The notes beneath the pieces are model-generated. The model was not told the DNA's origin. It ran no database searches and saw nothing but the letters and a program-made list of their open reading frames with translations. Shown here piece by piece: positions 4,106-43,935 of a stretch of 64,000 nt of DNA. The first letter of the stretch is position 1; each line of letters opens with the position of its first letter. Source of the stretch: a virus (taxonomy: Duplodnaviria > Caudoviricetes); the IMG/VR virus record IMGVR_UViG_3300010344_001170, positions 1 through 64,000 of that record; one strand, given 5' to 3'. The translations under genes were made by a program, and so were the position numbers.

Positions 4106-5293
4106 ATGTCGCCATTTAAATTCGAACTGGCCAAGATAGATCCGTATGAATGTTCAATTGAAGAACTTGAAAAAGAAATTTCTAGATTAAAAGCTTTAAA
4201 GGAAGAATACTTCAATCTTGAACAATCTATTAAGATTTTTATTAACTCTGTTTACGGAGCGTGTGCATCACCGTTTTTTGTTGGATATAATATACACGTT
4301 GCTGAAGCAGTAACTCTTCAGGGACAAGATTTAATAAAATATGCCAATAGAGTTTTGGATGATTATTTTATAAATCAATGGCATAAAGATACAGAACTTC
4401 ATCAAAAATTAGGATTAACATACGTGAATCCAATTCAAGAAAAAACTTTAGTTGTTTATAATGATACAGATTCAACGTATGTAACATTTGATCCGTTACT
4501 TAAATCATGTGATGCCCCAACGGATAGAGATGGTATCATTGATTTTATTCTTAAATTAAAAGAATTAAGATTAAATGATTATCTTGGAACAAAATTTGAT
4601 GAATACGCTAAAGAACGAAATACAAAAGACCTTCAAAATCTAGAACTCGAAAAGATTTCATATAGTGCCTTAATGTTGGCCAAAAAGAAGTATATTCTTG
4701 ACATAGCTTGGAAGGACCCAGGAGTTCGCTATGACCCCCAAAAGAAAGTTACGCCAACAGGTGTAGAAATTGTTCAAGGTTCCACTCCAAAATTTGCCAG
4801 AAAGGTATTAAAAGACATGCTTAATGTTCTTTTTGAAAAAGGAAAATCATTAGAATATGGGCAAGTCGTTAAAAAGCTAAAGGAATATAAAGAACAATTT
4901 CTTCTTCAAGACCCAGATGATATTTCTAAAACGATGTCGATAGGTGATTATGAGAAATACGTTTTAGAAGATCGTAAAGAATTAAAGATTGGTGATAAAT
5001 GCCCAATTAATGTTAGAGCAGCTGCTTTATATAATCATACATTGTTTAATACAAAATGGAAGAGCAAATATAATTTGATAAAAACCGGTGATAAAATAAA
5101 ATTCTATTATTCAAAAGGAGAAAATGATATTTTTGGATTTTTACCAGGAGATTATCCATATGAATTTGCACCAGCTGTAGATTATGATCGTCAGTTTGAA
5201 AAAATTATTGTAGAACCGTTTAACAGATTCATTGAACCATTAGGATTTAATCCAATACCAGGAAACTTAATATATGCCAAAAGCTTATTCTAA
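4106..5293 (+). CDS. family B DNA polymerase, C-terminal half (gp43B-like)
   Basis: Motif B KIFINSVYG, motif C YNDTDS, KKKY, thumb; lacks the exonuclease domain and motif A. Confidence 0.9.
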   Translation: MSPFKFELAKIDPYECSIEELEKEISRLKALKEEYFNLEQSIKIFINSVYGACASPFFVGYNIHVAEAVTLQGQDLIKYANRVLDDYFINQWHKDTELHQKLGLTYVNPIQEKTLVVYNDTDSTYVTFDPLLKSCDAPTDRDGIIDFILKLKELRLNDYLGTKFDEYAKERNTKDLQNLELEKISYSALMLAKKKYILDIAWKDPGVRYDPQKKVTPTGVEIVQGSTPKFARKVLKDMLNVLFEKGKSLEYGQVVKKLKEYKEQFLLQDPDDISKTMSIGDYEKYVLEDRKELKIGDKCPINVRAAALYNHTLFNTKWKSKYNLIKTGDKIKFYYSKGENDIFGFLPGDYPYEFAPAVDYDRQFEKIIVEPFNRFIEPLGFNPIPGNLIYAKSLF

Positions 5294-8066: not shown

Positions 8067-9337
8067 TGGCAAAGAAAAAAGAAGAAACAACGTCATTTTC
8101 AAAGTTAAATGATCTTTTAAACAAAATTGCCCCTGATGGAGAAATAATCGACATCAATCCTATAGGCAAAATCGATGAGTGGATTCCCACTGGTTGGTAT
8201 ATTTTAAATGCAGCTTTAAGTGGTTCTTTGTTTGGTGGTATGCCAAATAGAAGATCACTTGGTCTTGCGGGAGAAGAAGGAACCGGAAAAACTTATCTAG
8301 CTCTGAGTATTTTTAGAAATGCCCAGAATATGGAAAAACCCTATGATATAATTTATTTTGATTCAGAAGGTTCTATTGATAGGGACTTTGTATCTCGTTT
8401 AGGTGTTGATACAAGTAGATTTCGTTTACAACCTGTAAACACTATCGAAGAAGTAAATCATATTTCATCTAAGATTATCGAATCCATTGAAGATGCAATT
8501 AAGGCAGGCCAAGAACCTCCAAAAATTGCTATAGGTTTGGATTCATTAGGAAACCTTTCCTCCGTAAAAGAATTGCAAGATTCTGTAGACGCTAGTGATA
8601 AAAGAGATATGACTAAACAACAACAAGTTCGTAAGTTGTTTAGGGTGAATGGAATGAAATTTGCTAAATATGGAATTCCATTTATTGTCAATGCACATGT
8701 GTATGAAAAAATTGGTTCATATATTCCTGGAAAAGAAGTTTCAGGAGGTGGCGGATTAAAATATAATGTGTCAATAATGTTCATGCTTACTAAGAAAAAA
8801 TTAGATGACAAAGAAGCAGAACAGAAAGCAAAAGATAAAAATATTGAAGCGGTTAGAGTTGGTGTAACTATCGTGATTACACCTATCAAACAAAGATTTG
8901 CAAGACCAATTAAAATAGAAATTCATATTCCATTTTATAAGAAACCAAATCCATTTGTAGGTTTAGAAAAATTTACATCATGGGATTCTTGTGGTATAAT
9001 GAGAGGAAAAGCATTAACTGAAAAGTTATATGAAAAACTAACTGATGCTGAAAAGAAATCATGCCGTGAATTTGAAGGTCCTAATGGTGAAAAAATGTAT
9101 GCACAACCAAAGGACACAGCAAGAACTCTTGTATGCAAACATCTAAAAGGAGAAACGGCTTTAACAGATTTATTTACAGATAAAGTATTCACACAGGAAG
9201 TTCTACATGAATTAGACGAAAAAGTAATTAAACCTATTTTCATGCTTCCATCAATAGATTCTTTAGAAGACTTAGCAGAGTTAGAAGAAGATATGAATAT
9301 TGGTGATGAAACCCCTGAACTTAATGAAGAAGATTAA
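8066..9337 (+). CDS. uvsX: RecA/UvsX-like recombinase
   Basis: IPTG..ILNAALSG, Walker A GEEGTGKT, FDSEG, DSLGNL, GGGGLKY. Confidence 0.92.
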   Translation: MAKKKEETTSFSKLNDLLNKIAPDGEIIDINPIGKIDEWIPTGWYILNAALSGSLFGGMPNRRSLGLAGEEGTGKTYLALSIFRNAQNMEKPYDIIYFDSEGSIDRDFVSRLGVDTSRFRLQPVNTIEEVNHISSKIIESIEDAIKAGQEPPKIAIGLDSLGNLSSVKELQDSVDASDKRDMTKQQQVRKLFRVNGMKFAKYGIPFIVNAHVYEKIGSYIPGKEVSGGGGLKYNVSIMFMLTKKKLDDKEAEQKAKDKNIEAVRVGVTIVITPIKQRFARPIKIEIHIPFYKKPNPFVGLEKFTSWDSCGIMRGKALTEKLYEKLTDAEKKSCREFEGPNGEKMYAQPKDTARTLVCKHLKGETALTDLFTDKVFTQEVLHELDEKVIKPIFMLPSIDSLEDLAELEEDMNIGDETPELNEED

Positions 9338-9832: not shown

Positions 9833-10388
9833 CGGAAAGATAATTATTAGTGGATTATTTTTGCCATTTAGTGATCAACCAAATGGCAACAATCGTATTT
9901 ATAATAGCGATAGTATCTCTGATAAAGTCTTAGAAGAATTTAAAAAAGATATTAAAGAACGTAATGCTTTAGGAGAAAATTTTATATATCATCATGACTT
10001 GGATTTTGTTCCTTCGGAAATCCTTCTAACAAATGTTTCTCATATAATTAATAAAGTAGAAAAAACTGAAAAGGGATTAATTGGTGAAATTGAATTATTA
10101 GCTACTCCACAGGGAAATTTGGTAAAAGAATTATTAGACAAAGATTTAGTTCAACAAATGCCTCTTTGTGTAAGGCCACGATGTAGTGGGTCAGTTAATG
10201 AAGATAAAACAGTTACAATTGAAAGGATTTTTAGTTTTGATCTACTCAGTTCATATGACGACGCATTTAATCCTGATAGTTATCGAAACAGAAGATATAA
10301 ATTATCAAGAAATAAAAATAATAGGTATGAATTATCTGAAAATAAAAACATCAGATATAATTTATCTGAAAATAAAGAAGAAGCTTAA
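9804..10388 (+). CDS. prohead protease (gp21)-like protein, catalytic Ser motif apparently substituted
   Basis: NGNNRIY, NVSHII, IGEIELLATPQGNLVKELL match the gp21 fold; VRPRCSG replaces VSSRGxG. Confidence 0.7.
   Translation: MESVTFQQNSGKIIISGLFLPFSDQPNGNNRIYNSDSISDKVLEEFKKDIKERNALGENFIYHHDLDFVPSEILLTNVSHIINKVEKTEKGLIGEIELLATPQGNLVKELLDKDLVQQMPLCVRPRCSGSVNEDKTVTIERIFSFDLLSSYDDAFNPDSYRNRRYKLSRNKNNRYELSENKNIRYNLSENKEEA
10293..10382 (+). repeat. 3 x 30-bp tandem repeat encoding RY(K/E/N)LS(R/E)NKxx
   Basis: Units at 10293, 10323 and 10353. Confidence 0.85.
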
Positions 10389-32662: not shown

Positions 32663-33145
32663 TTAATCTTTTAAATATTCAAATCTAAGTATTGTTAATA
32701 TCTGTTTGTATTCTTTATCTTTCCATTTTATTCCTCTTGTTGATCCTCTCTGACAATAATTTAAAGCGGTTTCGTTGCTTCTGTCTTTGAGTTCTTTTTT
32801 AGCCCCGTGTTCTATTAAACACTCAACGATTTCTCTATTGCCATAAAAAGAAGCTTGCATTAATGCAGTGGTTCCAAACGTATTTTTCAAGTTTACTTTA
32901 GCGCCATTTTCTATTAATAATCGAACAATCCCTATATTTCCTTTAATACAAGCTAACATTAGAGCTGTTGTACGGCCTGAATCGCGGCAATTTATATTTA
33001 AAAATGGAATGTGTTCAATTAAAAGTTGTAGTGAAATATATTGATGTGTACGTGCGGCCATCAATACCATATTATTTTTTTCCTTTTCTGTTAATGAACC
33101 TAAAAGATTAATAATTTCTTCTTTATTTTTTGGTGCCAATATCAT
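32663..33145 (-). CDS. ankyrin-repeat protein with LxPK motif
   Basis: MILAPKNKEEI; GRTTALMLAC..G..GIVRLLIENGAKVNLKN repeats. Confidence 0.88.
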   Translation of the reverse strand: MILAPKNKEEIINLLGSLTEKEKNNMVLMAARTHQYISLQLLIEHIPFLNINCRDSGRTTALMLACIKGNIGIVRLLIENGAKVNLKNTFGTTALMQASFYGNREIVECLIEHGAKKELKDRSNETALNYCQRGSTRGIKWKDKEYKQILTILRFEYLKD

Positions 33146-33588
33146 CTTTGAGGGTATCTTAATTTTCTTTCTGGGTCATTTTTTCTTAAAGTAACTCTTT
33201 GGTTTTTATCACTTGGCATAATCTCCCATTCTCTAAACTTGTCTTGAATTTTTTTCTGGTTACAAGTTCCGAGTAAATAAGCAACTGTTGGTGAATCAGG
33301 AGATTCAGCTTTACAATAATATAAAAAACAATCGAGATTAGGGGAAATTTCAATATAACAAGCTAATATTTTATCAGCAAATATTGGGGCCATAAATCCC
33401 ACATGAACAAATTCTCTTGCATCTTCATAGATATGTGGGTCAAGAGAATTAAATCGATAAGTAAACGCTGATTTAATTTTACTACCATAGCAAAGATTTG
33501 CAATTTCGATTCCTTGTTCAGGAGTTAGATCTGCTATCGTCTTCATGCCTATTAATTGCTTCCTCCCATGCTTTTTGTTGATTTTCAA
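33142..33588 (-). CDS. hypothetical protein
   Basis: ORF in operon; start may be the internal MKTIADL. Confidence 0.7.
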   Translation of the reverse strand: MKINKKHGRKQLIGMKTIADLTPEQGIEIANLCYGSKIKSAFTYRFNSLDPHIYEDAREFVHVGFMAPIFADKILACYIEISPNLDCFLYYCKAESPDSPTVAYLLGTCNQKKIQDKFREWEIMPSDKNQRVTLRKNDPERKLRYPQR

Positions 33589-34201
33589 ATAACATTTCTT
33601 TAGTCACAAATGTTTTTGTTAAAATATACATGAAATTAGTTGAAATATTTTGTACTACTTGTCCTAATTCAATTCCACTCTCAATAGCCGCCTCCATATT
33701 GGTAATAATTTCTGTCTCTGTATTTTCTTGTTTCCATTGACTGAATTTTCTTGTTTGCACTTCACTAAAATAAATCTTAGCTACATCAATAATAGAAGAG
33801 AAATCAGTCTGCAAGTATCTTTCATTATATCTTTCAAAGAAGTGTTTTGTCCAAATTCCCCACATATCATATAAATCTTCTTTTCCATTTTCTTTTCCTG
33901 TCAATGCTAATTGTGAGAAAAAGTCAATACCTCTTTTATGAACAAAATATACGAAACAGTTAGGATATTCTGTATTATAGAGATGCCTTACGTATCGATC
34001 TCTTTTTATACGAACTTTAAACACCCATTTATTATTTCGAGGAGATGTCCAAACTATCCATTCATTACAAAAACCGATCTTCTTTTTGTTTAATTTAAGA
34101 ACCAGTTTTTTCATAAAATCATTGACATATGTTTCATAATTGGGAAGGTCTTTTGAAAGTTCCCGAATCTTTTCTTCATATGTCATTGACTCTACTATCA
34201 T
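33518..34201 (-). CDS. hypothetical protein
   Basis: ORF directly downstream of the TATATTTG promoter. Confidence 0.78.
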   Translation of the reverse strand: MIVESMTYEEKIRELSKDLPNYETYVNDFMKKLVLKLNKKKIGFCNEWIVWTSPRNNKWVFKVRIKRDRYVRHLYNTEYPNCFVYFVHKRGIDFFSQLALTGKENGKEDLYDMWGIWTKHFFERYNERYLQTDFSSIIDVAKIYFSEVQTRKFSQWKQENTETEIITNMEAAIESGIELGQVVQNISTNFMYILTKTFVTKEMLFENQQKAWEEAINRHEDDSRSNS

Positions 34202-34205
34202 AGTA

Positions 34206-34213
34206 CAAATATA
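34206..34213 (-). promoter_or_regulatory. host-type promoter
   Basis: TATATTTG, exact TAnnTTTG match; ATG 5 nt downstream (possibly leaderless). Confidence 0.6.
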
Positions 34214-34256
34214 ATAAAAAACTTTGACATTTAGAATAGTTTTAAGAAATTTTTAT

Positions 34257-34264
34257 TATATTAG
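34257..34264 (+). promoter_or_regulatory. host-type promoter (divergent from 34206)
   Basis: TTTTATTATATTAGC; ATG at 34269. Confidence 0.55.
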
Positions 34265-34268
34265 CTTC

Positions 34269-34700
34269 ATGGAAGATGAGTTCAAACAGAATATTAGGAC
34301 ATTATTAAAACCTAAATCAAAGGAAGAATTCCTTAATGATGTTAAGGGTCAATACATTACGAAAGAAATTGAAGTAACTTATCTTCAGCATTATAAAGAA
34401 GAATTTCCTGAAGAATATCTAGAGTTAAAGCAGCGAGTTGATCGTTTATTGAAAAAAAGATACCCTCAGTATTCAAGAGGTAATGGTTATCTTAACATTA
34501 AAAGAACTCGCATGTATTATTCCTCATCAAAAGCTAATGTGCAAATTGATGGAAAAAAATATGAGGTAAAGATTGTCTTATTAAACATGACTCCAACAAG
34601 AAGAATCCCAGAAATTGAAAATATAAGAAGCGGGACTCATTTTTATATCACAAAAGTTGGACAAGTAGAAACAATTATTAAATTCTTAGAAACACACTAA
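34269..34700 (+). CDS. LKPK-motif protein
   Basis: MEDEFKQNIRTLLKPKSKEEF; ATG at 34269 preferred. Confidence 0.78.
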   Translation: MEDEFKQNIRTLLKPKSKEEFLNDVKGQYITKEIEVTYLQHYKEEFPEEYLELKQRVDRLLKKRYPQYSRGNGYLNIKRTRMYYSSSKANVQIDGKKYEVKIVLLNMTPTRRIPEIENIRSGTHFYITKVGQVETIIKFLETH

Positions 34701-34786
34701 AATTTTAACAGAATTTTAACAGTATTTTTGGTATGATTTTGAAATTTAAGTATTAATTTTACTTTTACATCTTAAACATTTACGAC

Positions 34787-35332
34787 ATGACAAAAACTTT
34801 TTACTTTTACCATTTCCCTGATCGAAATGTAAATATTTTTGAGGGAATTCCTAATGATGTAACAAGTATCGACGTTACATACATAAAAAATGGGAGAACA
34901 ACGAACTATCCTATTACTGGTGGTCTTCAGGGGCTTGCTAAATACATGGCGGTCATGAATAGAAATAGAAGTAACATAAACAACATATCAAAAATTTCTG
35001 TTAATTGGCCAACACCCGTACTTGTAAACACTTTAAACATAAATAACATGAATAAATTTCCAATTGAATCCGGAATTCCGATTCCGGCAGCTAAAACAGC
35101 TAAAAAACCCAAAGTTGAAAACATCAACGAAGAATGGAGAAAGAATTTTCGAAAAATGAAGGTTAATGACTCATTTTTTGTTCCTGCTTTACCAAATGAT
35201 TTAACAAGCACTCAGGCAAGGCTAATGTCTTGTGCGTATAATTTTCGTAAATACGAACCTTCAATCAAAGTATTCAGCACACGAACAGAGCGAAAAGGAA
35301 TTACTGGAGTACGAATCTGGAGATTAAAATAA
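34787..35332 (+). CDS. hypothetical protein with C-terminal small DNA-binding-like domain
   Basis: IESGIPIP..F.KMKVNDSFFVP..GVRIWR C-terminal module. Confidence 0.7.
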   Translation: MTKTFYFYHFPDRNVNIFEGIPNDVTSIDVTYIKNGRTTNYPITGGLQGLAKYMAVMNRNRSNINNISKISVNWPTPVLVNTLNINNMNKFPIESGIPIPAAKTAKKPKVENINEEWRKNFRKMKVNDSFFVPALPNDLTSTQARLMSCAYNFRKYEPSIKVFSTRTERKGITGVRIWRLK

Positions 35333-35351
35333 ACCGGATTCAATAACAAAG

Positions 35352-35377
35352 ATAAAGCCCTTAATATAGGGCTTTAT
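35352..35377. terminator. bidirectional intrinsic terminator
   Basis: ATAAAGCCCT-TAATAT-AGGGCTTTAT between convergent genes. Confidence 0.8.
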
Positions 35378-35768
35378 TTTTTTTCTCAGTGGAGCGCCAG
35401 TTAATAAAATCCCATGTGAGGGCATTATGGCATATGATGTTCTTGTCTAATATATTCTTTGCCTCTTTATGATAGTCCTTTGGGATCAACTCTAAGAGCC
35501 TCTCCTTCATTTCTTCAACATTATCAGCCATTAGTTCTACACCATAAATTGTGGATAGAGCTTGAAGTGGTGGATGGTTGTTGGAAAGTTTACGACGTAA
35601 GACTTCAACTAAAAAGTTGCCATTGCCAGCTGAGTTATCACAAAAAGTTTTAGATGGATCGGACCAAACTTCTTGTGGAAGTTTGTCAAGCATTTCATTA
35701 ACTAATGGAAGAGGAGTGAAGTCTTCGGCTGTTTGTTTGCGGCGGGCTTTACGTTTTTGTTCTATCAT
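35361..35768 (-). CDS. SAM-binding half of an N6-adenine methyltransferase
   Basis: EDFTP (motif X), FCDNSAGNGNFL (motif I), IYGVEL (II), NIICHNAL (III); no NPP(F/Y). Confidence 0.85.
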   Translation of the reverse strand: MIEQKRKARRKQTAEDFTPLPLVNEMLDKLPQEVWSDPSKTFCDNSAGNGNFLVEVLRRKLSNNHPPLQALSTIYGVELMADNVEEMKERLLELIPKDYHKEAKNILDKNIICHNALTWDFINWRSTEKKNKALY

Positions 35769-35812
35769 AGATCTTCTCCATCATTAAAACGTTCAACCCA
35801 AGATTTAGGAAT
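35761..35812. repeat. 52-bp perfect direct repeat, copy 1
   Basis: Identical to 36666-36717. Confidence 0.95.
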
Positions 35813-36673
35813 CTTTTTAAAAATTGAAAGAGGAACATGATAACCATTTTCATTATATTCAATTATAAACATTTTAATAATTTTTGAATTGTTTAAAAAA
35901 TTTTCAAGATTTTTACCTTCCTCTTTATTGTTAACTATAAATCCAGAAGAATTATGACCGCAACCATATTTTCCTTCATCATAAAAACTCAAATAATTTC
36001 CAGGTGTATTTAAACTAACACTGTTACTTATTATGACCTTTTTATCATTAATTCCAAATGTTTTTACATCATACCAATCAAAAAATCCTTGTTTGTACTG
36101 AGCTATTGTATTGACATGCTGATATGGATGATCATTATCTCCTTCTTTTGTTTTTCTTAAACAATTAAATTTTCTACTATCATTTGATTTTATATTTAAA
36201 ATATAATCATTTGAAGAAGTTGATAAATCTTCGAAATATTTTTTAATTAAATCTTTATCCGTTTTTATGGGAAAAAATTTATAACGATTAAAAATTTTAT
36301 CCATAGTATTTGGTTTACCTTTATGTATTAACCATGAATCTATTTGCATAAAACCAGCAACCCCCTCAAACTCCTTTGTTACATCTTTTATAGATACAAT
36401 ATGATTTTCCCACATTATACTTTGAACATTTTCTACCACGCTTTTTGAAAAATTTCCAAGTCTCCAATGGGCTGGAGTTATAAGAGAAATCAATCCGTTA
36501 TCTTTTGTTATTTTAAAACTTAAAAAGATAAACTTGTGCCATAATTTAGCGCCGGATTGTCCTTCTCGCTTAGAAGGTGGTTGAAATGGCGGGTTCCCTA
36601 CAACAACATCAAATTTTGGCATACTATTCCAATTTAATTCTAAACTATCACCCTGTATTAGATGATCTATCAT
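35765..36673 (-). CDS. catalytic half plus TRD of an N6-adenine methyltransferase
   Basis: Starts at HLIQGDSL, then FDVVVGNPPF (motif IV), LITP..W, TRD, KIPKSWVERFNDGEDL. Confidence 0.88.
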   Translation of the reverse strand: MIDHLIQGDSLELNWNSMPKFDVVVGNPPFQPPSKREGQSGAKLWHKFIFLSFKITKDNGLISLITPAHWRLGNFSKSVVENVQSIMWENHIVSIKDVTKEFEGVAGFMQIDSWLIHKGKPNTMDKIFNRYKFFPIKTDKDLIKKYFEDLSTSSNDYILNIKSNDSRKFNCLRKTKEGDNDHPYQHVNTIAQYKQGFFDWYDVKTFGINDKKVIISNSVSLNTPGNYLSFYDEGKYGCGHNSSGFIVNNKEEGKNLENFLNNSKIIKMFIIEYNENGYHVPLSIFKKIPKSWVERFNDGEDL

Positions 36674-36717
36674 AGATCTTCTCCATCATTAAAACGTTCA
36701 ACCCAAGATTTAGGAAT
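36666..36717. repeat. 52-bp perfect direct repeat, copy 2
   Basis: Identical to 35761-35812; offset 905 bp. Confidence 0.95.
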
Positions 36718-39700
36718 TCTTTTAATTAGTTGTAAAGGAAATCCAGTAAATCCCTTTTCATTTTGTGTTTCCTTTTCAATCATTTTAATAATCTTACTAT
36801 TATTTAAAAAATTAACTAATTGATCCCCCTCATTTTTGTCTTTAACTAAATATCCAACAGAACTATGACCCGTTCCTACTTTTCCAGGATCATAAAACGA
36901 ATTTAAATTTTTTGAGATGGTTGTTGATGTTATAACCTTAGGATGATCAAATCCTTCAGTTTTATATTCATACCAATCATATAAATTTTTCATATATTGT
37001 GTGATTGTACTAACATGAGGAAATTTTCTATTTTCATCTCCCTTTTCACTTTTTCTTATTTCATTTGGATAATGAGAATTTGATTTAACATTCATTTCAA
37101 AATTATCGTTTTTTTCAATATCTTTGTAAAATTGTTTAATTTGAGAATTTTTTGATATTGGTAAAAATTTGTTCTTTTTAAATATAGGATCTATTGTAAC
37201 CCCATCCAAATTAAAATTTTTAGAAACAATCCAATAATCAATATTAACAATTCCTCCGACATCAAAAAAATTATTAGCCGAATCAAAAAATATTATATTA
37301 TTATTCCAAATTAATTCTTGCGCTTCTTTAATTGTTTTTTTAGGACCGGTTCTCCATAAATCTGGAGTTATAAAAGCTATTATTCCATTTTTATTTAAAA
37401 TAGAAAATCCAATTTCAACAAAATAATGCCATATTTTTGCTCCTGCATTAGAAACATTAGTACCTTTTTCTCGTTTAACTTCTTTTTGGAATGGCGGATT
37501 TCCTACAACAACATCGAATTTTGGCATTTTATTCCAATCTAAATTTAAACTATCTTTATTTAATAAATTATCTTTATATCCCTTATTATTTATAAGCTTT
37601 TTGGCTATAGAAGTTTTACCTCTTGCAATATCTACTCCCCATATCATTTCTTCTATTATATGTTTCTCTCTTTCTTTTTCATTTGGAATTGAATTCTTTA
37701 ATCCTTCCATTAATCGTTCTTTTATTCCTAAAATATATTTACCTGTACCCATACAAGGGTCACAAAAAGTTTTTTTTGGATCAGTCCATGTATCTTTTGG
37801 AAGTTTATCTAACATTTCATTAACAAGTTTACCAGGCGTACTTCCTTCTGCCGCACGAATAGCAAAATGTTGATTAACAAACTCATCAACCTTTTCTAAA
37901 CTTGCATTTCTTAAAATATCTCTTTCTTCATCTAAAAAATATTTTATATTTCTGTTGATTAAAACTTTGTTTATTAATCCTTTATCAACCCACATTTTAA
38001 GAGTATCTACATTTATCCCTGTAGTTTCTTCAAATAAATCCGGCGAGTCCGTATAAATTATATCGTCAATAGTTTCTTCTTCAGCAGCACTATTAAATAA
38101 GAATAATGGAATAGCAGATAATACTCCTGAAATTTTTTCAATTGTTTTTTTAATTAAATTTCGGTCTCCTTTTGTTAAATCTACATTAGCATCTGTAGAT
38201 TTGGCAGCTGTTTTAAATGACCTCTTTATATTTTTACCCAATTCAATTTCCTGATCATTTAATTCTATTTCTTTTCCTCTTTTTCCAACTATTAATCCAA
38301 GTAATGAGCCAATAACATCGTCATCAATTTTTTCAGGATTAAAATTCTTAATATTAGCAAATTTTTCAGAGAAGGATCCATAAACTCTAAAGTTCTCAAT
38401 AACATTATCAAAATTAACTTCAGTTAATTTATTATCTCTATGATCTAAGATTGGAGCATAATCCAAAAATTCTGTTATAGTTTCGCTTAATTTTTTAGAT
38501 CCAGTTTTGTCCATGTTTTCACATGATTCATAAACCATTGATAAACATCTTTGTGGATTAAAATCAAAAACATGACATTCTTGTTTATTATTTTGAACAT
38601 CAGGATTTTGACATCTAAATATAGCTTGCAGATATTCTTCAATTGATTTTCCACTATCTAACATTAAAACTCCGTTCCACTCAGGAACAGTTACCCCTTC
38701 TTTAAATCTATAACATGATAAAGTTATTGTTCTTTGTCCTTCATTTTTGGCTTTATTTATTTTTTCTTGGACATCTTTAATATTTGTAACAACATTTGAT
38801 GTAGCTGGAATTATAATATAATCCTCATATTCGGGCATTTTTTCCATTAATTTGGCCATTGCCTTAATTCCCTTTACATCTTTATCTAATACCCAGAAAG
38901 TATGATCTAAATTTGCGACACTTCGATATGGTGACATCGTTTTATGTACTCCTTCACCTGCAATTTGACGCAACAGAATTTCCATGGAACCTTCATCTTT
39001 TAATTTTCCTCCTTCAGTAGCTAACATTTTTCGCATTGTAAATCCTTCTTCAGGAGTATAAAAAGATGCTCGACTTTTTGCCTCTTCACTTATTTCCATT
39101 AAATGAAAATGCATAGTTGGCATTTGTAAGTGTGTTCCATATCCTTTATCTTTTTCTTCTCTTTTCTTTTGTTGTTCGTCGATGTAAGACCAAGAATATA
39201 TTTGATCATCATCAAATCTTCCCATGGCAATATCTTTCATAGAAGATCCCAAAACATACACCATGTATTTATATTTTAACGCTTCTAATAATTTCTTAAA
39301 TCTAAATGTACTGCCTCCATAATGATATTCATCAGCAATAACCATATCGAAATTAATTTTGGCTAATTTTCGAATATTTCTAGCCATATCTTGAATGACC
39401 TCTGTTTCTATTCCTTCTTCCTCTTCATATCCAAAAATATTTATATTTTCATTTTCGTGTAATGCTAATTGAGCTGATGACATAAATACTGTTGGAGCTT
39501 CTTTTGATTCTTCTAAGTTTCTTTCCTTTTTAAAATCAACGATTTTCCATCCATCAAAATTGACATGACCTTTTATATCTTGTTCAAGAGAATCAAATAC
39601 ATGAGGTTTATAAGTAAGAACTAAAATATTTTTCATTCCCATTGTTTTAGCCACATTTAATAAGGTGAAATTTTTTCCAAATCTCATTTTTGCAGCTAAT

Positions 39701-40707
39701 AAGAATTCTTTTCCTCCTTTTTCAAAATAATTAACTATCTTATCATGTGCTTCCTTTTGTTCAGGACGCATGTCGTATGATTTTGGTTTTTCGGAATCAT
39801 ATAAAACACCGCTGATAATTTCTTTTAATTTTTCAAATGAAACACCTCCAAAAACTTCAGTACTTTTGCCTACAGTTCCTCGAAAACCTCCTTTTTCTCT
39901 AATCTTCTTTTGAACAGCATGTTCTGCATCATAGGCGTGTTTAAATCCTTTGTTGGATTCTGACGATAAATATTCATCTAATCGTTTAGCATAAATGATA
40001 ACAGTCCCATCCATTGTAACCCCTCTATAACTTTTTATAGTTTGAAGGGGAGTTTTGGCTTCTCCTTGAGATCCATATTGACCAAATTTTAGAGGAATAT
40101 TTCCTTTTTTAGGATCTTCTTTGAGATATTTAATTTCAGTCCAAATATAAAGACCTTGACCCGGCTTTTTTAAATCATCTGTTTGATATAAATCTGTTAA
40201 ACAATAAAAACCTTTTTCTAATCTTTTTATTCCTAATGATTTCTCATCAACTGAGAACATTCTTGAATTCATATCATCGTCTGAATAATTATTATCATCT
40301 TGTTGAGCATAAATATCAAGAGTTCTAGGAGGCTCTTGTTTTAATTTAGTATCTGGAGAAACTATATTCTGAGGAGGTTTTTCTTCAATCGTGTTTTTTT
40401 CTCTGTGTTTCTTTTGCACTTGAAATTGATATTCTCTAAAACTTTGAAAATTATTAATATCTTTATCTAATTTTAAATTCTTTTCTTTTTGTACATTAAA
40501 TGTCTGTTTCAAATCATTGAAATTAATTCCCTGAAAAACCCATTGTGCAAATTTACCTGCATAATCTGGATCATTTTTGATTAATTCAAAAAATTCTTTA
40601 TATTCAGGATCATTTGTGGAAATATCATTTTGAGCAAATAATTCTTGCGCTTGCTCAATATTTTCTAATAATTTGAATTGTGGTAAGGATTCACAAACCA
40701 ATATCAT
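36670..40707 (-). CDS. single-chain nuclease-SF2 helicase-N6 methyltransferase-TRD (Type IIG/ISP-like) with VxES leader
   Basis: MILVCES..LLE leader; T5orf172/GIY-YIG-like segment LKFGQ..AEHAVQ..EVF; AKMRFGKN, DEYH, QAIFRCQNP; STP..V, FCDPCMGTG, GNPPF. Confidence 0.85.
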   Translation of the reverse strand: MILVCESLPQFKLLENIEQAQELFAQNDISTNDPEYKEFFELIKNDPDYAGKFAQWVFQGINFNDLKQTFNVQKEKNLKLDKDINNFQSFREYQFQVQKKHREKNTIEEKPPQNIVSPDTKLKQEPPRTLDIYAQQDDNNYSDDDMNSRMFSVDEKSLGIKRLEKGFYCLTDLYQTDDLKKPGQGLYIWTEIKYLKEDPKKGNIPLKFGQYGSQGEAKTPLQTIKSYRGVTMDGTVIIYAKRLDEYLSSESNKGFKHAYDAEHAVQKKIREKGGFRGTVGKSTEVFGGVSFEKLKEIISGVLYDSEKPKSYDMRPEQKEAHDKIVNYFEKGGKEFLLAAKMRFGKNFTLLNVAKTMGMKNILVLTYKPHVFDSLEQDIKGHVNFDGWKIVDFKKERNLEESKEAPTVFMSSAQLALHENENINIFGYEEEEGIETEVIQDMARNIRKLAKINFDMVIADEYHYGGSTFRFKKLLEALKYKYMVYVLGSSMKDIAMGRFDDDQIYSWSYIDEQQKKREEKDKGYGTHLQMPTMHFHLMEISEEAKSRASFYTPEEGFTMRKMLATEGGKLKDEGSMEILLRQIAGEGVHKTMSPYRSVANLDHTFWVLDKDVKGIKAMAKLMEKMPEYEDYIIIPATSNVVTNIKDVQEKINKAKNEGQRTITLSCYRFKEGVTVPEWNGVLMLDSGKSIEEYLQAIFRCQNPDVQNNKQECHVFDFNPQRCLSMVYESCENMDKTGSKKLSETITEFLDYAPILDHRDNKLTEVNFDNVIENFRVYGSFSEKFANIKNFNPEKIDDDVIGSLLGLIVGKRGKEIELNDQEIELGKNIKRSFKTAAKSTDANVDLTKGDRNLIKKTIEKISGVLSAIPLFLFNSAAEEETIDDIIYTDSPDLFEETTGINVDTLKMWVDKGLINKVLINRNIKYFLDEERDILRNASLEKVDEFVNQHFAIRAAEGSTPGKLVNEMLDKLPKDTWTDPKKTFCDPCMGTGKYILGIKERLMEGLKNSIPNEKEREKHIIEEMIWGVDIARGKTSIAKKLINNKGYKDNLLNKDSLNLDWNKMPKFDVVVGNPPFQKEVKREKGTNVSNAGAKIWHYFVEIGFSILNKNGIIAFITPDLWRTGPKKTIKEAQELIWNNNIIFFDSANNFFDVGGIVNIDYWIVSKNFNLDGVTIDPIFKKNKFLPISKNSQIKQFYKDIEKNDNFEMNVKSNSHYPNEIRKSEKGDENRKFPHVSTITQYMKNLYDWYEYKTEGFDHPKVITSTTISKNLNSFYDPGKVGTGHSSVGYLVKDKNEGDQLVNFLNNSKIIKMIEKETQNEKGFTGFPLQLIKRIPKSWVERFNDGEDL

Positions 40708-40714
40708 GACAAGA

Positions 40715-40731
40715 TTTTATTTTATATATTT
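40715..40731 (-). promoter_or_regulatory. putative late promoter for the helicase-MTase operon
   Basis: Reverse complement AAATATATAAAATAAAA. Confidence 0.55.
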
Positions 40732-40760
40732 AGAAAAACTAAGTTCCACTAAACCAATAT

Positions 40761-40777
40761 AAATATATAAAGAAAAA
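40761..40777 (+). promoter_or_regulatory. putative late promoter for the portal gene
   Basis: AAATATATAAAGAAAAA. Confidence 0.5.
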
Positions 40778-40788
40778 GTATATAGCTC

Positions 40789-42636
40789 ATGGCAGGATTT
40801 ACCTTGCGTTCGCTCGATAACAAAGGAGCAGGTTTAGTTTCAAGAATACAACGTAATATTCGTTACCTTGCATCCTTAGGGATGAAATGGGATCACGAAC
40901 TTCTTCAGCAATCAAAATCTATAGGTATTGCTGAGGCCCAAATGGATTCAATGTATGGCCTCTATTATCAACAGGGTCAATACATGGGGCTCGACGTTGG
41001 TCAAAAAGAATTCATTGCATTTTATGATAAAGAGTACCCTACACGTAGAGATTTTCTACGTAAATTTGCAATGAATGGAGAAATCGAACACGTTCTTGAA
41101 GTAATCTCTGATGAAACAATTATTTTTGACGATCAAAACTATTTTGCTTACCCAGCAACCAGAGAATTGAAATCTGTTTTAAAACAAGAAAAAGCAAAAG
41201 AAATTATTGACGATTTAAACGAATCTTATAAGAAAATATACTTTGCCTTTGGTTTCAACAAAGGACATGATGCATGGCATTATTGCAAAAAATTCTTAAT
41301 TGACGGTTTCTTAGCATTCGAAGTTATTTATGATGGCGAAGGAACAGATGATGCAAAGAATGTTATTGGTTTTAAAGAATTAGATCCTGTTTCTCTTGAA
41401 CCAGAAATAAGAAAAGATACAGATGGAAAAGAATATCGTGTTTGGATTCAGTATCGTGGTGATTCACAACGTCAAAGAGAATTATTAGATTCCAACTTAA
41501 TTTATATTTCATGGGCACGTGGTAATTTCATTTCAAGACTTTCATATGTTGAACGTTTAGTTCGTTCATTCAATATGTTAAGAACTCTTGAAAATTCACG
41601 TATTATTTGGAACGTATGGAACGCTCAGATGCGTGTTAAAATAATCGTGCCGATTGGAACTCAATCAGAAGCAAAAGCACGTACAAGACTTTCCGAACTT
41701 CGTGGTATGTATAAAGAAGAACTCTCGATTGATGATCAATCAGGAGAAGTTAATTACAATGGACAAGTTCAGTTCCCATTTGCAAAAACATTTGTTATTC
41801 CATCAAGAGATGGACAGCAAACTGAAATTGATGGTTTCCAACCAACTGGTTATGACCTTTCAAATATCGATGCATTAAAGTATTTCTGGCAAAGATTTAT
41901 TATTGAGACAAAGGTTCCATCATCTCGTTTCTCAAATGATCCTGCAAACGGCCCAGTAGGCACCTGGAGTGCCAATGCCGAAGGTATTGCTAGAGAAGAA
42001 TTAAGATTTGAAAACTTCATTACAAGAATTAGATCTATTTTACAAGAAATAGTTTTAAAACCAGCATGGTTACAATTCTGTTTAAAACATCCTGAATTTG
42101 CAAAGGATGAATCTTTAAGAGCTGCAGTTGGTCTTGATTATGTTGATGAAAACTTATTTGCTGAAGCTAAGGAAAGAGACCTTGCTGAAAAGGCTGCAAA
42201 TACAGTTACAACCCTTATGAACATCAAACAACCTACTGTAATGCCAGACGGAAGTCCCGGTGAAGAAAACTATTTTGATGCTAAGTTCTTAGTTGAGAAG
42301 TACATGTCATTAACTGATATGGATATTAAACTCAATGAAAAATATAAGAAAGAACGTAGAGATGAAGTACGTAAACTTGCTGCTGCTTATGCACGTATAG
42401 CTGCTGCTAGAGGAACTGCTGCTGGTGGTGGAATGGAAGGTGGTGCAGGTGGATTTGGTGGTGCTGGAGGATTAGGCGGCGGTGAATTTGGTGGATTAGG
42501 TGGTGCTGAAGCCGGAGCAGGAGAACTTGGTGGTCTTGGAGGTACTGAAGAACTTGGCGGATTAGGTGGAGAAGAAGAAGGTGGCGAATTAGGAGGAGAA
42601 GAAACAGCAACCGAAGAAACTCCACCAGCAAAATAA
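40789..42636 (+). CDS. gp20: portal vertex protein (T4 gp20-like)
   Basis: EIEHVLEVISDE, FLIDG.LAFE, ELDP, VRSFNMLRTLENSRII, IPSRDG, IETKVPSSRF, IAREELRF; Gly/Glu-rich tail. Confidence 0.9.
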   Translation: MAGFTLRSLDNKGAGLVSRIQRNIRYLASLGMKWDHELLQQSKSIGIAEAQMDSMYGLYYQQGQYMGLDVGQKEFIAFYDKEYPTRRDFLRKFAMNGEIEHVLEVISDETIIFDDQNYFAYPATRELKSVLKQEKAKEIIDDLNESYKKIYFAFGFNKGHDAWHYCKKFLIDGFLAFEVIYDGEGTDDAKNVIGFKELDPVSLEPEIRKDTDGKEYRVWIQYRGDSQRQRELLDSNLIYISWARGNFISRLSYVERLVRSFNMLRTLENSRIIWNVWNAQMRVKIIVPIGTQSEAKARTRLSELRGMYKEELSIDDQSGEVNYNGQVQFPFAKTFVIPSRDGQQTEIDGFQPTGYDLSNIDALKYFWQRFIIETKVPSSRFSNDPANGPVGTWSANAEGIAREELRFENFITRIRSILQEIVLKPAWLQFCLKHPEFAKDESLRAAVGLDYVDENLFAEAKERDLAEKAANTVTTLMNIKQPTVMPDGSPGEENYFDAKFLVEKYMSLTDMDIKLNEKYKKERRDEVRKLAAAYARIAAARGTAAGGGMEGGAGGFGGAGGLGGGEFGGLGGAEAGAGELGGLGGTEELGGLGGEEEGGELGGEETATEETPPAK

Positions 42637-42645
42637 AAACTATTT

Positions 42646-43935
42646 ATGGGGTTATTACGACATAATGGAAAATTATTAAGATTTTCTAATAAGCTTGTTT
42701 CTTTTGGAGGTGAAGAACCTACTTATGAACTTACATTTGATTTGACTGTTATTCGTAATCAAGAAATGGATAACACTGTCGGAGATGCAGGTTCTACAGA
42801 TCTTTATGTATCTGCTATTGACGGAAACACTTTAACTGTTCCTAATCTTCCTTCCTATTCGAAATTTTATGAAACAAATACATGGATAGTTAAAAACACG
42901 TCAGTTAACGGCACTGCAGTATTATGTACAAGCATAAATGATGTAGCTAAAACAGTTACATTAACGAGTGTATCTGGTTTTTCAGTAGGAACAAGAATAG
43001 CATTATTAAATCCATATTTAAACTGGGAATTTTCAGGAAATCAATCATCAAGCCCTTCTATACCTGCTAATGGTGGTATATCATGGATGAGTTCAGAAAC
43101 CGGTGGAGGGACTATTCTTCCTCCTAAAGATGGTGTAAAAAGATGGTTATTTTTTGGAAACAACGGAGCAGTTAATAGCATGGGATTGGCAACTTCTTCT
43201 GATTGGCAAACTTGGGATGTATCAAATAATCAACAACCAGTTTTAATGGCGTCAGAAGTTCCTGGAGGTCCTACAAGTATTTATGCGGCAGGAAGCTACG
43301 TAATGGTAGATAATAGCATATGTTGTTTGCTCGGAACTAACTTAGGAGCAAGAATAATGTGTTTTGATAATGATGTTTCAAATTTTTCGTTTGGACCAAT
43401 AATTTCAGCAACAGGCGTATCAGCACCTGGAGGGTTGGCAAAAATAGGAGATTATTATCATATTCTCATAATGGATACGAGCTCTGGATTTACGAAACGA
43501 GAAATTCAAGCTCTAAAATCAACCAATGTTGAAGGCCCTTATACAAAATATCAGAGTATTATTCATGGTGCTATAGCGCCATATGGAACTGCGTGGGATT
43601 ATGCCTGTGATATGCCGGTAATAATCAATGACGGGGTAAATATAATGGGAATTTTTGGTGGGCAGCAACAAGCAGGTTCTCTCGGTTCAGGAGTAGGTTA
43701 TCAAAATAGAGAAGGAATATTGTTGGATTTTGATAAAGATACAGAAACATGGTCTATAAATACAAAAGGGCCGGCCTTTATAAATCCAGTTGACTGGCCC
43801 GGGGCTCCTTGGTATTATGATCATGTTGGAGCAGCAATTTCTACTTATATAGATGGTAGTACAATGTATATGGGAGCAACTTTTAAGGGATATGCTGCTA
43901 CTATGCTTAAGTTAAAAAATTTTAATCAAATATAA
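42646..43935 (+). CDS. putative virion beta-rich (propeller-like) protein
   Basis: G/S/T/N-rich beta composition; follows the portal gene. Confidence 0.6.
   Translation: MGLLRHNGKLLRFSNKLVSFGGEEPTYELTFDLTVIRNQEMDNTVGDAGSTDLYVSAIDGNTLTVPNLPSYSKFYETNTWIVKNTSVNGTAVLCTSINDVAKTVTLTSVSGFSVGTRIALLNPYLNWEFSGNQSSSPSIPANGGISWMSSETGGGTILPPKDGVKRWLFFGNNGAVNSMGLATSSDWQTWDVSNNQQPVLMASEVPGGPTSIYAAGSYVMVDNSICCLLGTNLGARIMCFDNDVSNFSFGPIISATGVSAPGGLAKIGDYYHILIMDTSSGFTKREIQALKSTNVEGPYTKYQSIIHGAIAPYGTAWDYACDMPVIINDGVNIMGIFGGQQQAGSLGSGVGYQNREGILLDFDKDTETWSINTKGPAFINPVDWPGAPWYYDHVGAAISTYIDGSTMYMGATFKGYAATMLKLKNFNQI

Follow-up and report, generated by a model that had tools for sequence, protein, structure and literature searches.

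What is the role of a second catalytic and target-recognising module that stands directly behind a complete adenine methyltransferase gene in a phage genome? The question is raised by three adjacent minus-strand open reading frames (ORFs), P0001, P0002 and P0003, in a 64,000-nt stretch of phage DNA (positions 1 to 64,000 of IMG/VR virus record IMGVR_UViG_3300010344_001170, hereafter the window). P0001 is a large helicase-methyltransferase that ends in a first target recognition domain (TRD), TRD1; P0002 repeats the C-terminal part of this enzyme with a diverged domain, TRD2; P0003 resembles the N-terminal half of a methyltransferase domain. The initial annotation had regarded TRD2 as a spare cassette, and the repeats bordering it as a recombinational specificity switch. 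The explanation favoured here, to which a probability of about 0.65 is given, is that the window carries a hypervariable methyltransferase locus in its two-cassette form, where C-terminal halves (C-halves) are exchanged between phages, and where P0002 and P0003 would form a split enzyme, the whole being a fast-evolving locus and not a reversible switch.

Architecture of the three-gene operon

The three ORFs are linked by ATGA stop/start overlaps, and a terminator closes the operon (Table 1). Only P0001 carries in a single chain the motif order of the gamma-class (Eco57I-like, PF07669) methyltransferases, which neither P0002 nor P0003 does singly. Its methyltransferase domain contains motifs X and I-III, then motif IV (NPPF), then TRD1, and its motif I looks intact. 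Pfam matches are to ResIII, Helicase_C and Eco57I, and PADLOC matches are to the Type IIG restriction endonuclease-methyltransferase (REase-MTase) and MTase_II models. An AlphaFold2 (AF2) model of residues 935-1345, with a mean predicted local distance difference test score (pLDDT) of 86.8 and a predicted template modelling score (pTM) of 0.84, exhibits the gamma-class topology: strands beta1-beta3 with motifs X and I-III, beta4 at the motif IV strand, and a C-terminal TRD. A search of PDB sequences with P0001 returned no match, while the best PDB matches of the model are CamA, M.BseCI, PglX, MmeI and M.TaqI (Foldseek E 6e-19 to 4e-10, with 12-20% identity among these listed matches). P0001 shares its fold, motif order and C-terminal TRD with CamA, M.BseCI, M.TaqI and the methyltransferase-TRD portion of PglX/MmeI (7lni, 7qw5, 2adm, 8q56, 5hr4), but differs from them in that its domain lies behind a helicase and is accompanied by a second copy devoid of the half that binds S-adenosylmethionine (AdoMet).

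This second copy, P0002, is 46% identical to the last 300 residues of P0001. It starts four residues ahead of beta3 and lacks motifs X and I, and its Pfam Eco57I match covers profile positions 71-165 only. The following ORF, P0003, ends where beta4 and motif IV would begin. It is 52% identical to P0001 residues 951-998 and matches phrog_21201 and phrog_4376, while Pfam, NCBIfam and PDB sequence searches with it gave nothing significant. On the PADLOC mad2 profile, P0003 aligns to positions 266-353 and P0002 to positions 343-411. Motifs I and IV thus never stand in one chain for these two proteins, and neither is complete alone; their ORFs are adjacent and co-oriented, overlap by ATGA, and carry complementary, nearly non-overlapping motif sets. 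P0002 and P0003 are therefore candidates for the complementary halves of one methyltransferase domain.

The P0002 ORF is intact and preceded by its own GGAG Shine-Dalgarno sequence and start codon; all 32 invariant columns of an alignment of 11 C-halves are kept, and the NPPF motif, which fits the (D/N)PP(Y/F) pattern, is present in P0001 and P0002 and invariant across the 11. Because the ORF is complete, has its own ribosome-binding site and start, retains the invariant residues and precedes its likely partner P0003, P0002 looks like an expressed subunit and not a silent donor copy, which speaks against the "spare" cassette of the initial annotation.

The tandem arrangement itself, with its 905-bp period, was confirmed as first described. 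Two 906-nt units, 62% identical in DNA and 46% in protein, are bounded at one side by a perfect direct repeat of exactly 52 nt, with no extension on either side, and at the other by two motif-IV blocks, likewise 905 bp apart, that share 60 of their 69 nt and have a longest perfect run of 14 nt. By our own estimate, a perfect 52-bp repeat would be expected by chance about 1e-19 times in 64 kb at the 31% G+C of the window. Read on the minus strand, the 52-mer comprises the final 15 codons of each unit, the GGAG Shine-Dalgarno sequence, the ATGA overlap and the first two codons of the next gene, and hence it is predicted to be a translational-coupling junction. The equal period at both boundaries is taken as a coincidence, since other cassettes range from 277 to 327 amino acids and the alignment gaps inside the two units cancel out.

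Free C-halves and N-halves in related phages

Relatives were gathered by searches with a C-half alignment and with P0003, which returned about 180 loci (numbered below with the prefix L). The alignment was required to find relatives of the C-half: P0002 alone as query against viral contigs returned no related locus. DNA of the locus gave no match among 50,697 deposited phages, and a protein search of deposited phages returned only distant cyanophage matches at 26% identity.

Dozens of diverged phages encode free C-half ORFs of 270-330 amino acids whose first residue is a conserved methionine ahead of motif IV. A free N-half gene follows directly, in most cases with its start codon overlapping the C-half stop, in L003, L004, L005, L006, L022, L043, L117, L120, L148 and others. 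Their copy number varies: L004 possesses two, L022 a fused enzyme plus two, and L043 four. An adjoining N-half is found in nearly all cases, the loci L071-L073 having none within the locus. In L117 (110-5617) and L120 (1-3172), the helicase protein stops exactly at motif III and is followed by two C-halves (296/282 amino acids in L117, 290/279 in L120) and one N-half. These two loci represent a fully split form with two N-halves and two C-halves (2N+2C), and the window the same composition with its first pair fused.

The reverse situation is illustrated by P0107, P0125 and P0138, natural single-chain fusions with the order C-half, TRD, N-half. By Rosetta-stone reasoning, they are evidence that a C-half cooperates with the N-half whose gene follows. 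In an AF2 model of the P0107 fusion (pLDDT 60, pTM 0.38), only the N-half and the first 40 residues are confident. Since free C-halves followed by an N-half recur in many phages, and since such fusions exist, P0002 and P0003 are probably a split second methyltransferase.

The N-half family to which P0003 belongs is large, with 2628 clusters, mostly of stand-alone proteins of 130-200 amino acids, and the Atlas clusters nearest to P0003 are viral. Free N-half homologues, most of them labelled hypothetical proteins, are also encoded by Lak megaphages (43% identity over the full length), T4-like cyanophages and phages of Aeromonas and Klebsiella; examples are MK250021 (Lak-B2, ~42825-43244) and HQ633071 (S-SKS1, ~159669-159989).

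Other variations on the theme were encountered among the relatives. The large helicase-methyltransferases of L114:34-4257, L116:204-4370, L141:98-4162, L151:2193-5990 and L168:129-4295 have a degenerate internal motif I, the glycine-rich loop being replaced by an EKNGAF- or DKSGSF-like sequence, and each such gene is followed by a canonical free N-half; this degeneracy may be the reason why the small N-half gene is kept in some relatives. The large enzymes also share an N-terminal leader of the ESL..F.L.EN type (window 40600-40707; L117:110-220; L167:257-370). In L043, a perfect 49-nt direct repeat (5026-5074 and 9952-10000, spacing 4926 nt) surrounds the four C-half genes and the N-half gene, and this array may move as one block. 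L056:3200-10400 contains five full-length methyltransferase genes in tandem, with a period of ~1330 nt, then one free N-half; its spacers each hold a conserved 74-nt G+C-rich element.

Cassette exchange among relatives

Comparison of the number and identity of TRDs across relatives, the check proposed with the initial annotation, yielded the predicted alleles 905 bp shorter: L008 (Joint Genome Institute, JGI) and L110 (European Nucleotide Archive, ENA; activated sludge) possess a single cassette, 99% identical to TRD1, directly followed by an N-half 96% identical to P0003. When the extra unit is removed from the window, its alignment to L008 is near-perfect on both sides of the joint: 1 of 811 nt differs over 37554-36743 (99.9% identity) and 0 of 206 over 35723-35518. 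Between these flanks lies a junction zone of ~116 nt (36742 to 35724 without the insert) in which 12 sites differ. Because the differences cluster in this zone between near-identical flanks, TRD2 was gained or lost as a patch of ~1 kb, with one end point near the 3' terminus of the cassette before it and the other within the initial 45 nt of the N-half gene. Upstream of 37555, in the helicase and the X-I part, identity to L008 is ~77%.

The 5' breakpoint is sharp. For 3.3 kb, as far as motif IV, L008 and L009 show 100% identity, which falls to 60-75% beyond it, and the identity breakpoints of the pairs window-L008 and L008-L009 sit at the two edges of motif-IV block copy 1. At the 3' side, comparison of the window with L003 (ERZ27257428) and L007 gives 45-70% identity in the cassette, 82-100% in its tail, and high identity onward through P0003 and downstream. 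More generally, the N-half is conserved at 85-96% while the adjoining cassette ranges from 29 to 99%, with at least six cassette alleles, including one with a different tail class. As a protein, P0006 is a same-slot allele of P0002: its first 31 residues and its tail are identical and its body is 48% identical. The tails are conserved as proteins in many cassettes with synonymous differences between contigs, and the two copies of the window agree at 52 of 52 positions, as would result from a recombination joint or from intragenomic homogenisation.

Near-identical flanks, diverged centres and sharp flank breakpoints are the marks of TRD exchange. The alignments show that homologous recombination has swapped, added or removed C-half cassettes in this group of related phages, the end points being the conserved motif III/IV block on one side, and the conserved C-terminal tail with the start of the N-half gene on the other. 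Of the proposal that TRDs are replaced at these boundaries, one part hence stands, namely exchange, gain and loss at the named positions (L008, L110, L009, L003, L007), and the words "spare" and "switch" do not. A recent tandem duplication was also considered for the two units and rejected: they are 46% identical to each other, yet TRD1 is 99% identical to the L008 cassette.

The operon lies beside the portal gene (40789-42636, phrog_213) and diverges from it. On its other side, the segment 34700-35360 with a 181-amino-acid plus-strand ORF (34787-35332) is missing in L008 and present in L003, a further indel beside the operon. The source is a 79-kb record to which CheckV assigns 20% completeness, and the phage, which is uncultured, is therefore a large one.

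Table 1. Positions of the operon components and of the exchange boundaries in the window.
Feature	Coordinates	Strand	Description
P0001	36670..40707	-	1345 aa; N-terminal region, SF2/ResIII (superfamily 2) helicase, complete gamma-class N6-adenine methyltransferase
Motif-IV block copy 1	37486..37554	-	5' exchange boundary; 60/69 match to copy 2
Unit 1	36670..37575	-	Last 300 aa of P0001, comprising motif III/IV block, catalytic motifs and TRD1
52-bp junction copy 1	36666..36717	-	TRD1 C-terminal tail, GGAG, ATGA, first codons of P0002
P0002	35765..36673	-	302 aa; free C-half: motif III remnant, NPPF, motifs V-VIII, TRD2
Motif-IV block copy 2	36581..36649	-	89% identity to L007, which drops afterwards
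52-bp junction copy 2	35761..35812	-	3' exchange boundary; TRD2 tail, GGAG, ATGA, first codons of P0003
P0003	35361..35768	-	135 aa; free N-half limited to motifs X and I-III
P0003 motif X-I segment	35638..35717	-	75% direct repeat of P0001 37760-37839
Intrinsic terminator	35352..35377	-	Operon end

Alternative explanations, known systems and meaning

In the favoured explanation, P0002 and P0003 would be made by coupled translation and would assemble as a methyltransferase of two chains in permuted order, adding a second specificity. With two motifs marked simultaneously, the phage would escape host restriction. Within one genome, the 52-bp repeat would only delete or duplicate the unit, leading to an L008-type allele, and new specificities would enter via recombination between co-infecting relatives, probably aided by the RecA-family (UvsX-like) recombinase that the phage encodes 27 kb from the locus (8177-8869 on the plus strand, PF00154 at 46.9 bits, in a 425-amino-acid frame). 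A wider version, put forward only tentatively, is that the halves are freely combinable: one N-half would serve several C-halves, arrays of C-halves would grow, shrink and swap at the coupling junction, and the window would be a 2N+2C example of a multi-specific anti-restriction kit.

Some observations weigh against a working P0002/P0003 pair. In many relatives, indeed in most, a free N-half follows a seemingly complete fused methyltransferase and there is no free C-half, so that the role of the N-half in those phages may be other than pairing with a P0002-like chain. P0002 also carries a redundant motif III segment, and TRD2 was found only in this phage, L084 being the only close relative recovered. 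The same observations would suit a P0002 that is a non-functional, not yet decayed leftover of recombination or duplication, with an unrelated role for P0003. This is considered unlikely: the reading frame is unbroken, NPPF and all residues invariant in the family are retained, the ATGA coupling is precise, and a Shine-Dalgarno sequence is present. Besides, free C-halves of the same size range recur in dozens of diverged phages with an N-half adjoining in nearly all, and both the fully split (L117, L120) and the fused (P0107) forms tie the halves together.

Still less probable is a programmed switch, in which a silent spare TRD2 would be moved by the repeats onto the large enzyme, or removed, as a form of phase variation. 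It is true that the repeats are placed exactly at the natural exchange breakpoints, that one- and two-cassette alleles both exist, and that the phage encodes a RecA-like recombinase. The repeats are direct, and therefore recombination within one genome can only delete or duplicate the unit; such deletions are irreversible without a second genome, and the longest perfect stretch in the motif-IV repeat is 14 bases. The alleles were recovered from separate metagenomes, and their flanks are different as well. P0002, moreover, comes with its own ribosome-binding site, start codon and partner gene, and many phages conserve free C-halves as ORFs. None of the 25 longest of the 99 inverted-repeat pairs in 33000-41000 joins the two cassette borders, and each of these 25 is imperfect, with 71-94% complementarity. 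Scanned against PHROG, ten flanking ORFs gave the portal protein, an ankyrin-type family (with ankyrin Pfam matches on the syntenic L003 ORF) and unknowns, and no site-specific recombinase of the integrase or invertase type; the distant RecA-family gene is the sole recombinase that was located. An inversion shufflon was rejected on the same grounds: border repeats in direct orientation, no bracketing pair among the inverted repeats listed, and no recombinase in the flanking ORFs scanned. Exchange between phage lineages is what the data demonstrate, and not reversible phase variation. A mis-assembly, in which two strain variants would have been collapsed or joined as a chimera, is hardly credible. 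The locus is strain-variable and repeat-bearing, and some related contigs (L003, L009) terminate in it or close by, but the independent ENA assembly L084 (ERZ27257404; 3794 nt) is 99.97% identical over both junctions, so that the tandem of two diverged units is not an artefact. The contig name of L084 (k141_...) also suggests a final assembly k of 141, above the 52 and 69 nt of the repeats, and reading frames, overlaps and terminator are all coherent. The initial annotation had already seen the internal divergence of the units as an argument against mis-assembly.

Returning to the exchangeable, split-enzyme reading, several described systems share parts of it. TRD replacement, or "domain movement", is known in bacterial mod, hsdS and Type IIG genes (Helicobacter pylori; Furuta and Kobayashi; PMC3077401, PMC3575425, PMC3983042). 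As in those genes, variable recognition segments lie between conserved sequence, homologous recombination operates, and breakpoints in the flanks are sharp. The present locus differs in being carried by a phage and in its mobile unit, an entire half (catalytic motifs and TRD) bearing start and stop codons of its own, which can be added as an extra gene or substituted, and whose 3' flank is a coupling junction and the next gene. Shufflons with invertible hsdS, found in phase-variable Type I systems such as pneumococcal SpnIV/tvr (PMC6265443), likewise place alternative TRDs beside an expressed gene, with repeats at the TRD borders, but their inverted repeats, recombinase, silent partial genes and reversible switching were not found here.

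Two-chain DNA methyltransferases are represented by M.AquI and M.EcoHK31I, and fragment complementation by M.SssI (PMC3404938, PMC2836561). M.AquI and M.EcoHK31I resemble the P0002/P0003 pair in being encoded by neighbouring ORFs whose motif sets complete each other. Fragments of M.SssI that overlap are still able to complement, to be compared with the redundant motif III stub of P0002. Those three are C5-cytosine enzymes, split in or near the variable region, whereas the pair described here would be a gamma-class N6-adenine enzyme split between motifs III and IV (beta3/beta4), with the C-half first and with a number of C-halves per N-half that varies among relatives. A literature search returned no paper describing such a gamma-class split or cassette architecture. 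"Pseudo" TRDs were reportedly noted in multispecific Bacillus-phage C5 methyltransferases by Lange et al. in 1991. The classical precedent in phages for TRDs in tandem is given by the multispecific C5 methyltransferases of Bacillus phages SPR, phi3T, rho11s and SPbeta (Trautner et al. 1996, as cited in PMC12707154). These enzymes also assemble interchangeable target-recognising modules in tandem against several restriction systems, but within one polypeptide, whereas the modules of the present locus are separate N6-adenine ORFs, each with catalytic motifs.

Phage methyltransferases decide which restriction systems can be evaded and thereby help to set host range. The locus offers a natural case of "plug-in" exchange of phage specificity modules, with breakpoints resolved to the nucleotide at two defined junctions, and cassette exchange looks like a means of changing or extending the set of DNA-marking specificities with which host restriction is countered. 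The locus further hints at a widespread split adenine methyltransferase, whose catalytic/TRD halves and AdoMet-binding half are encoded as separate genes in variable numbers. If the halves assemble, the junctions would provide natural design rules for modular methyltransferases, and the cassettes would constitute a large reservoir of unexplored N6-methyladenine (m6A) specificities.

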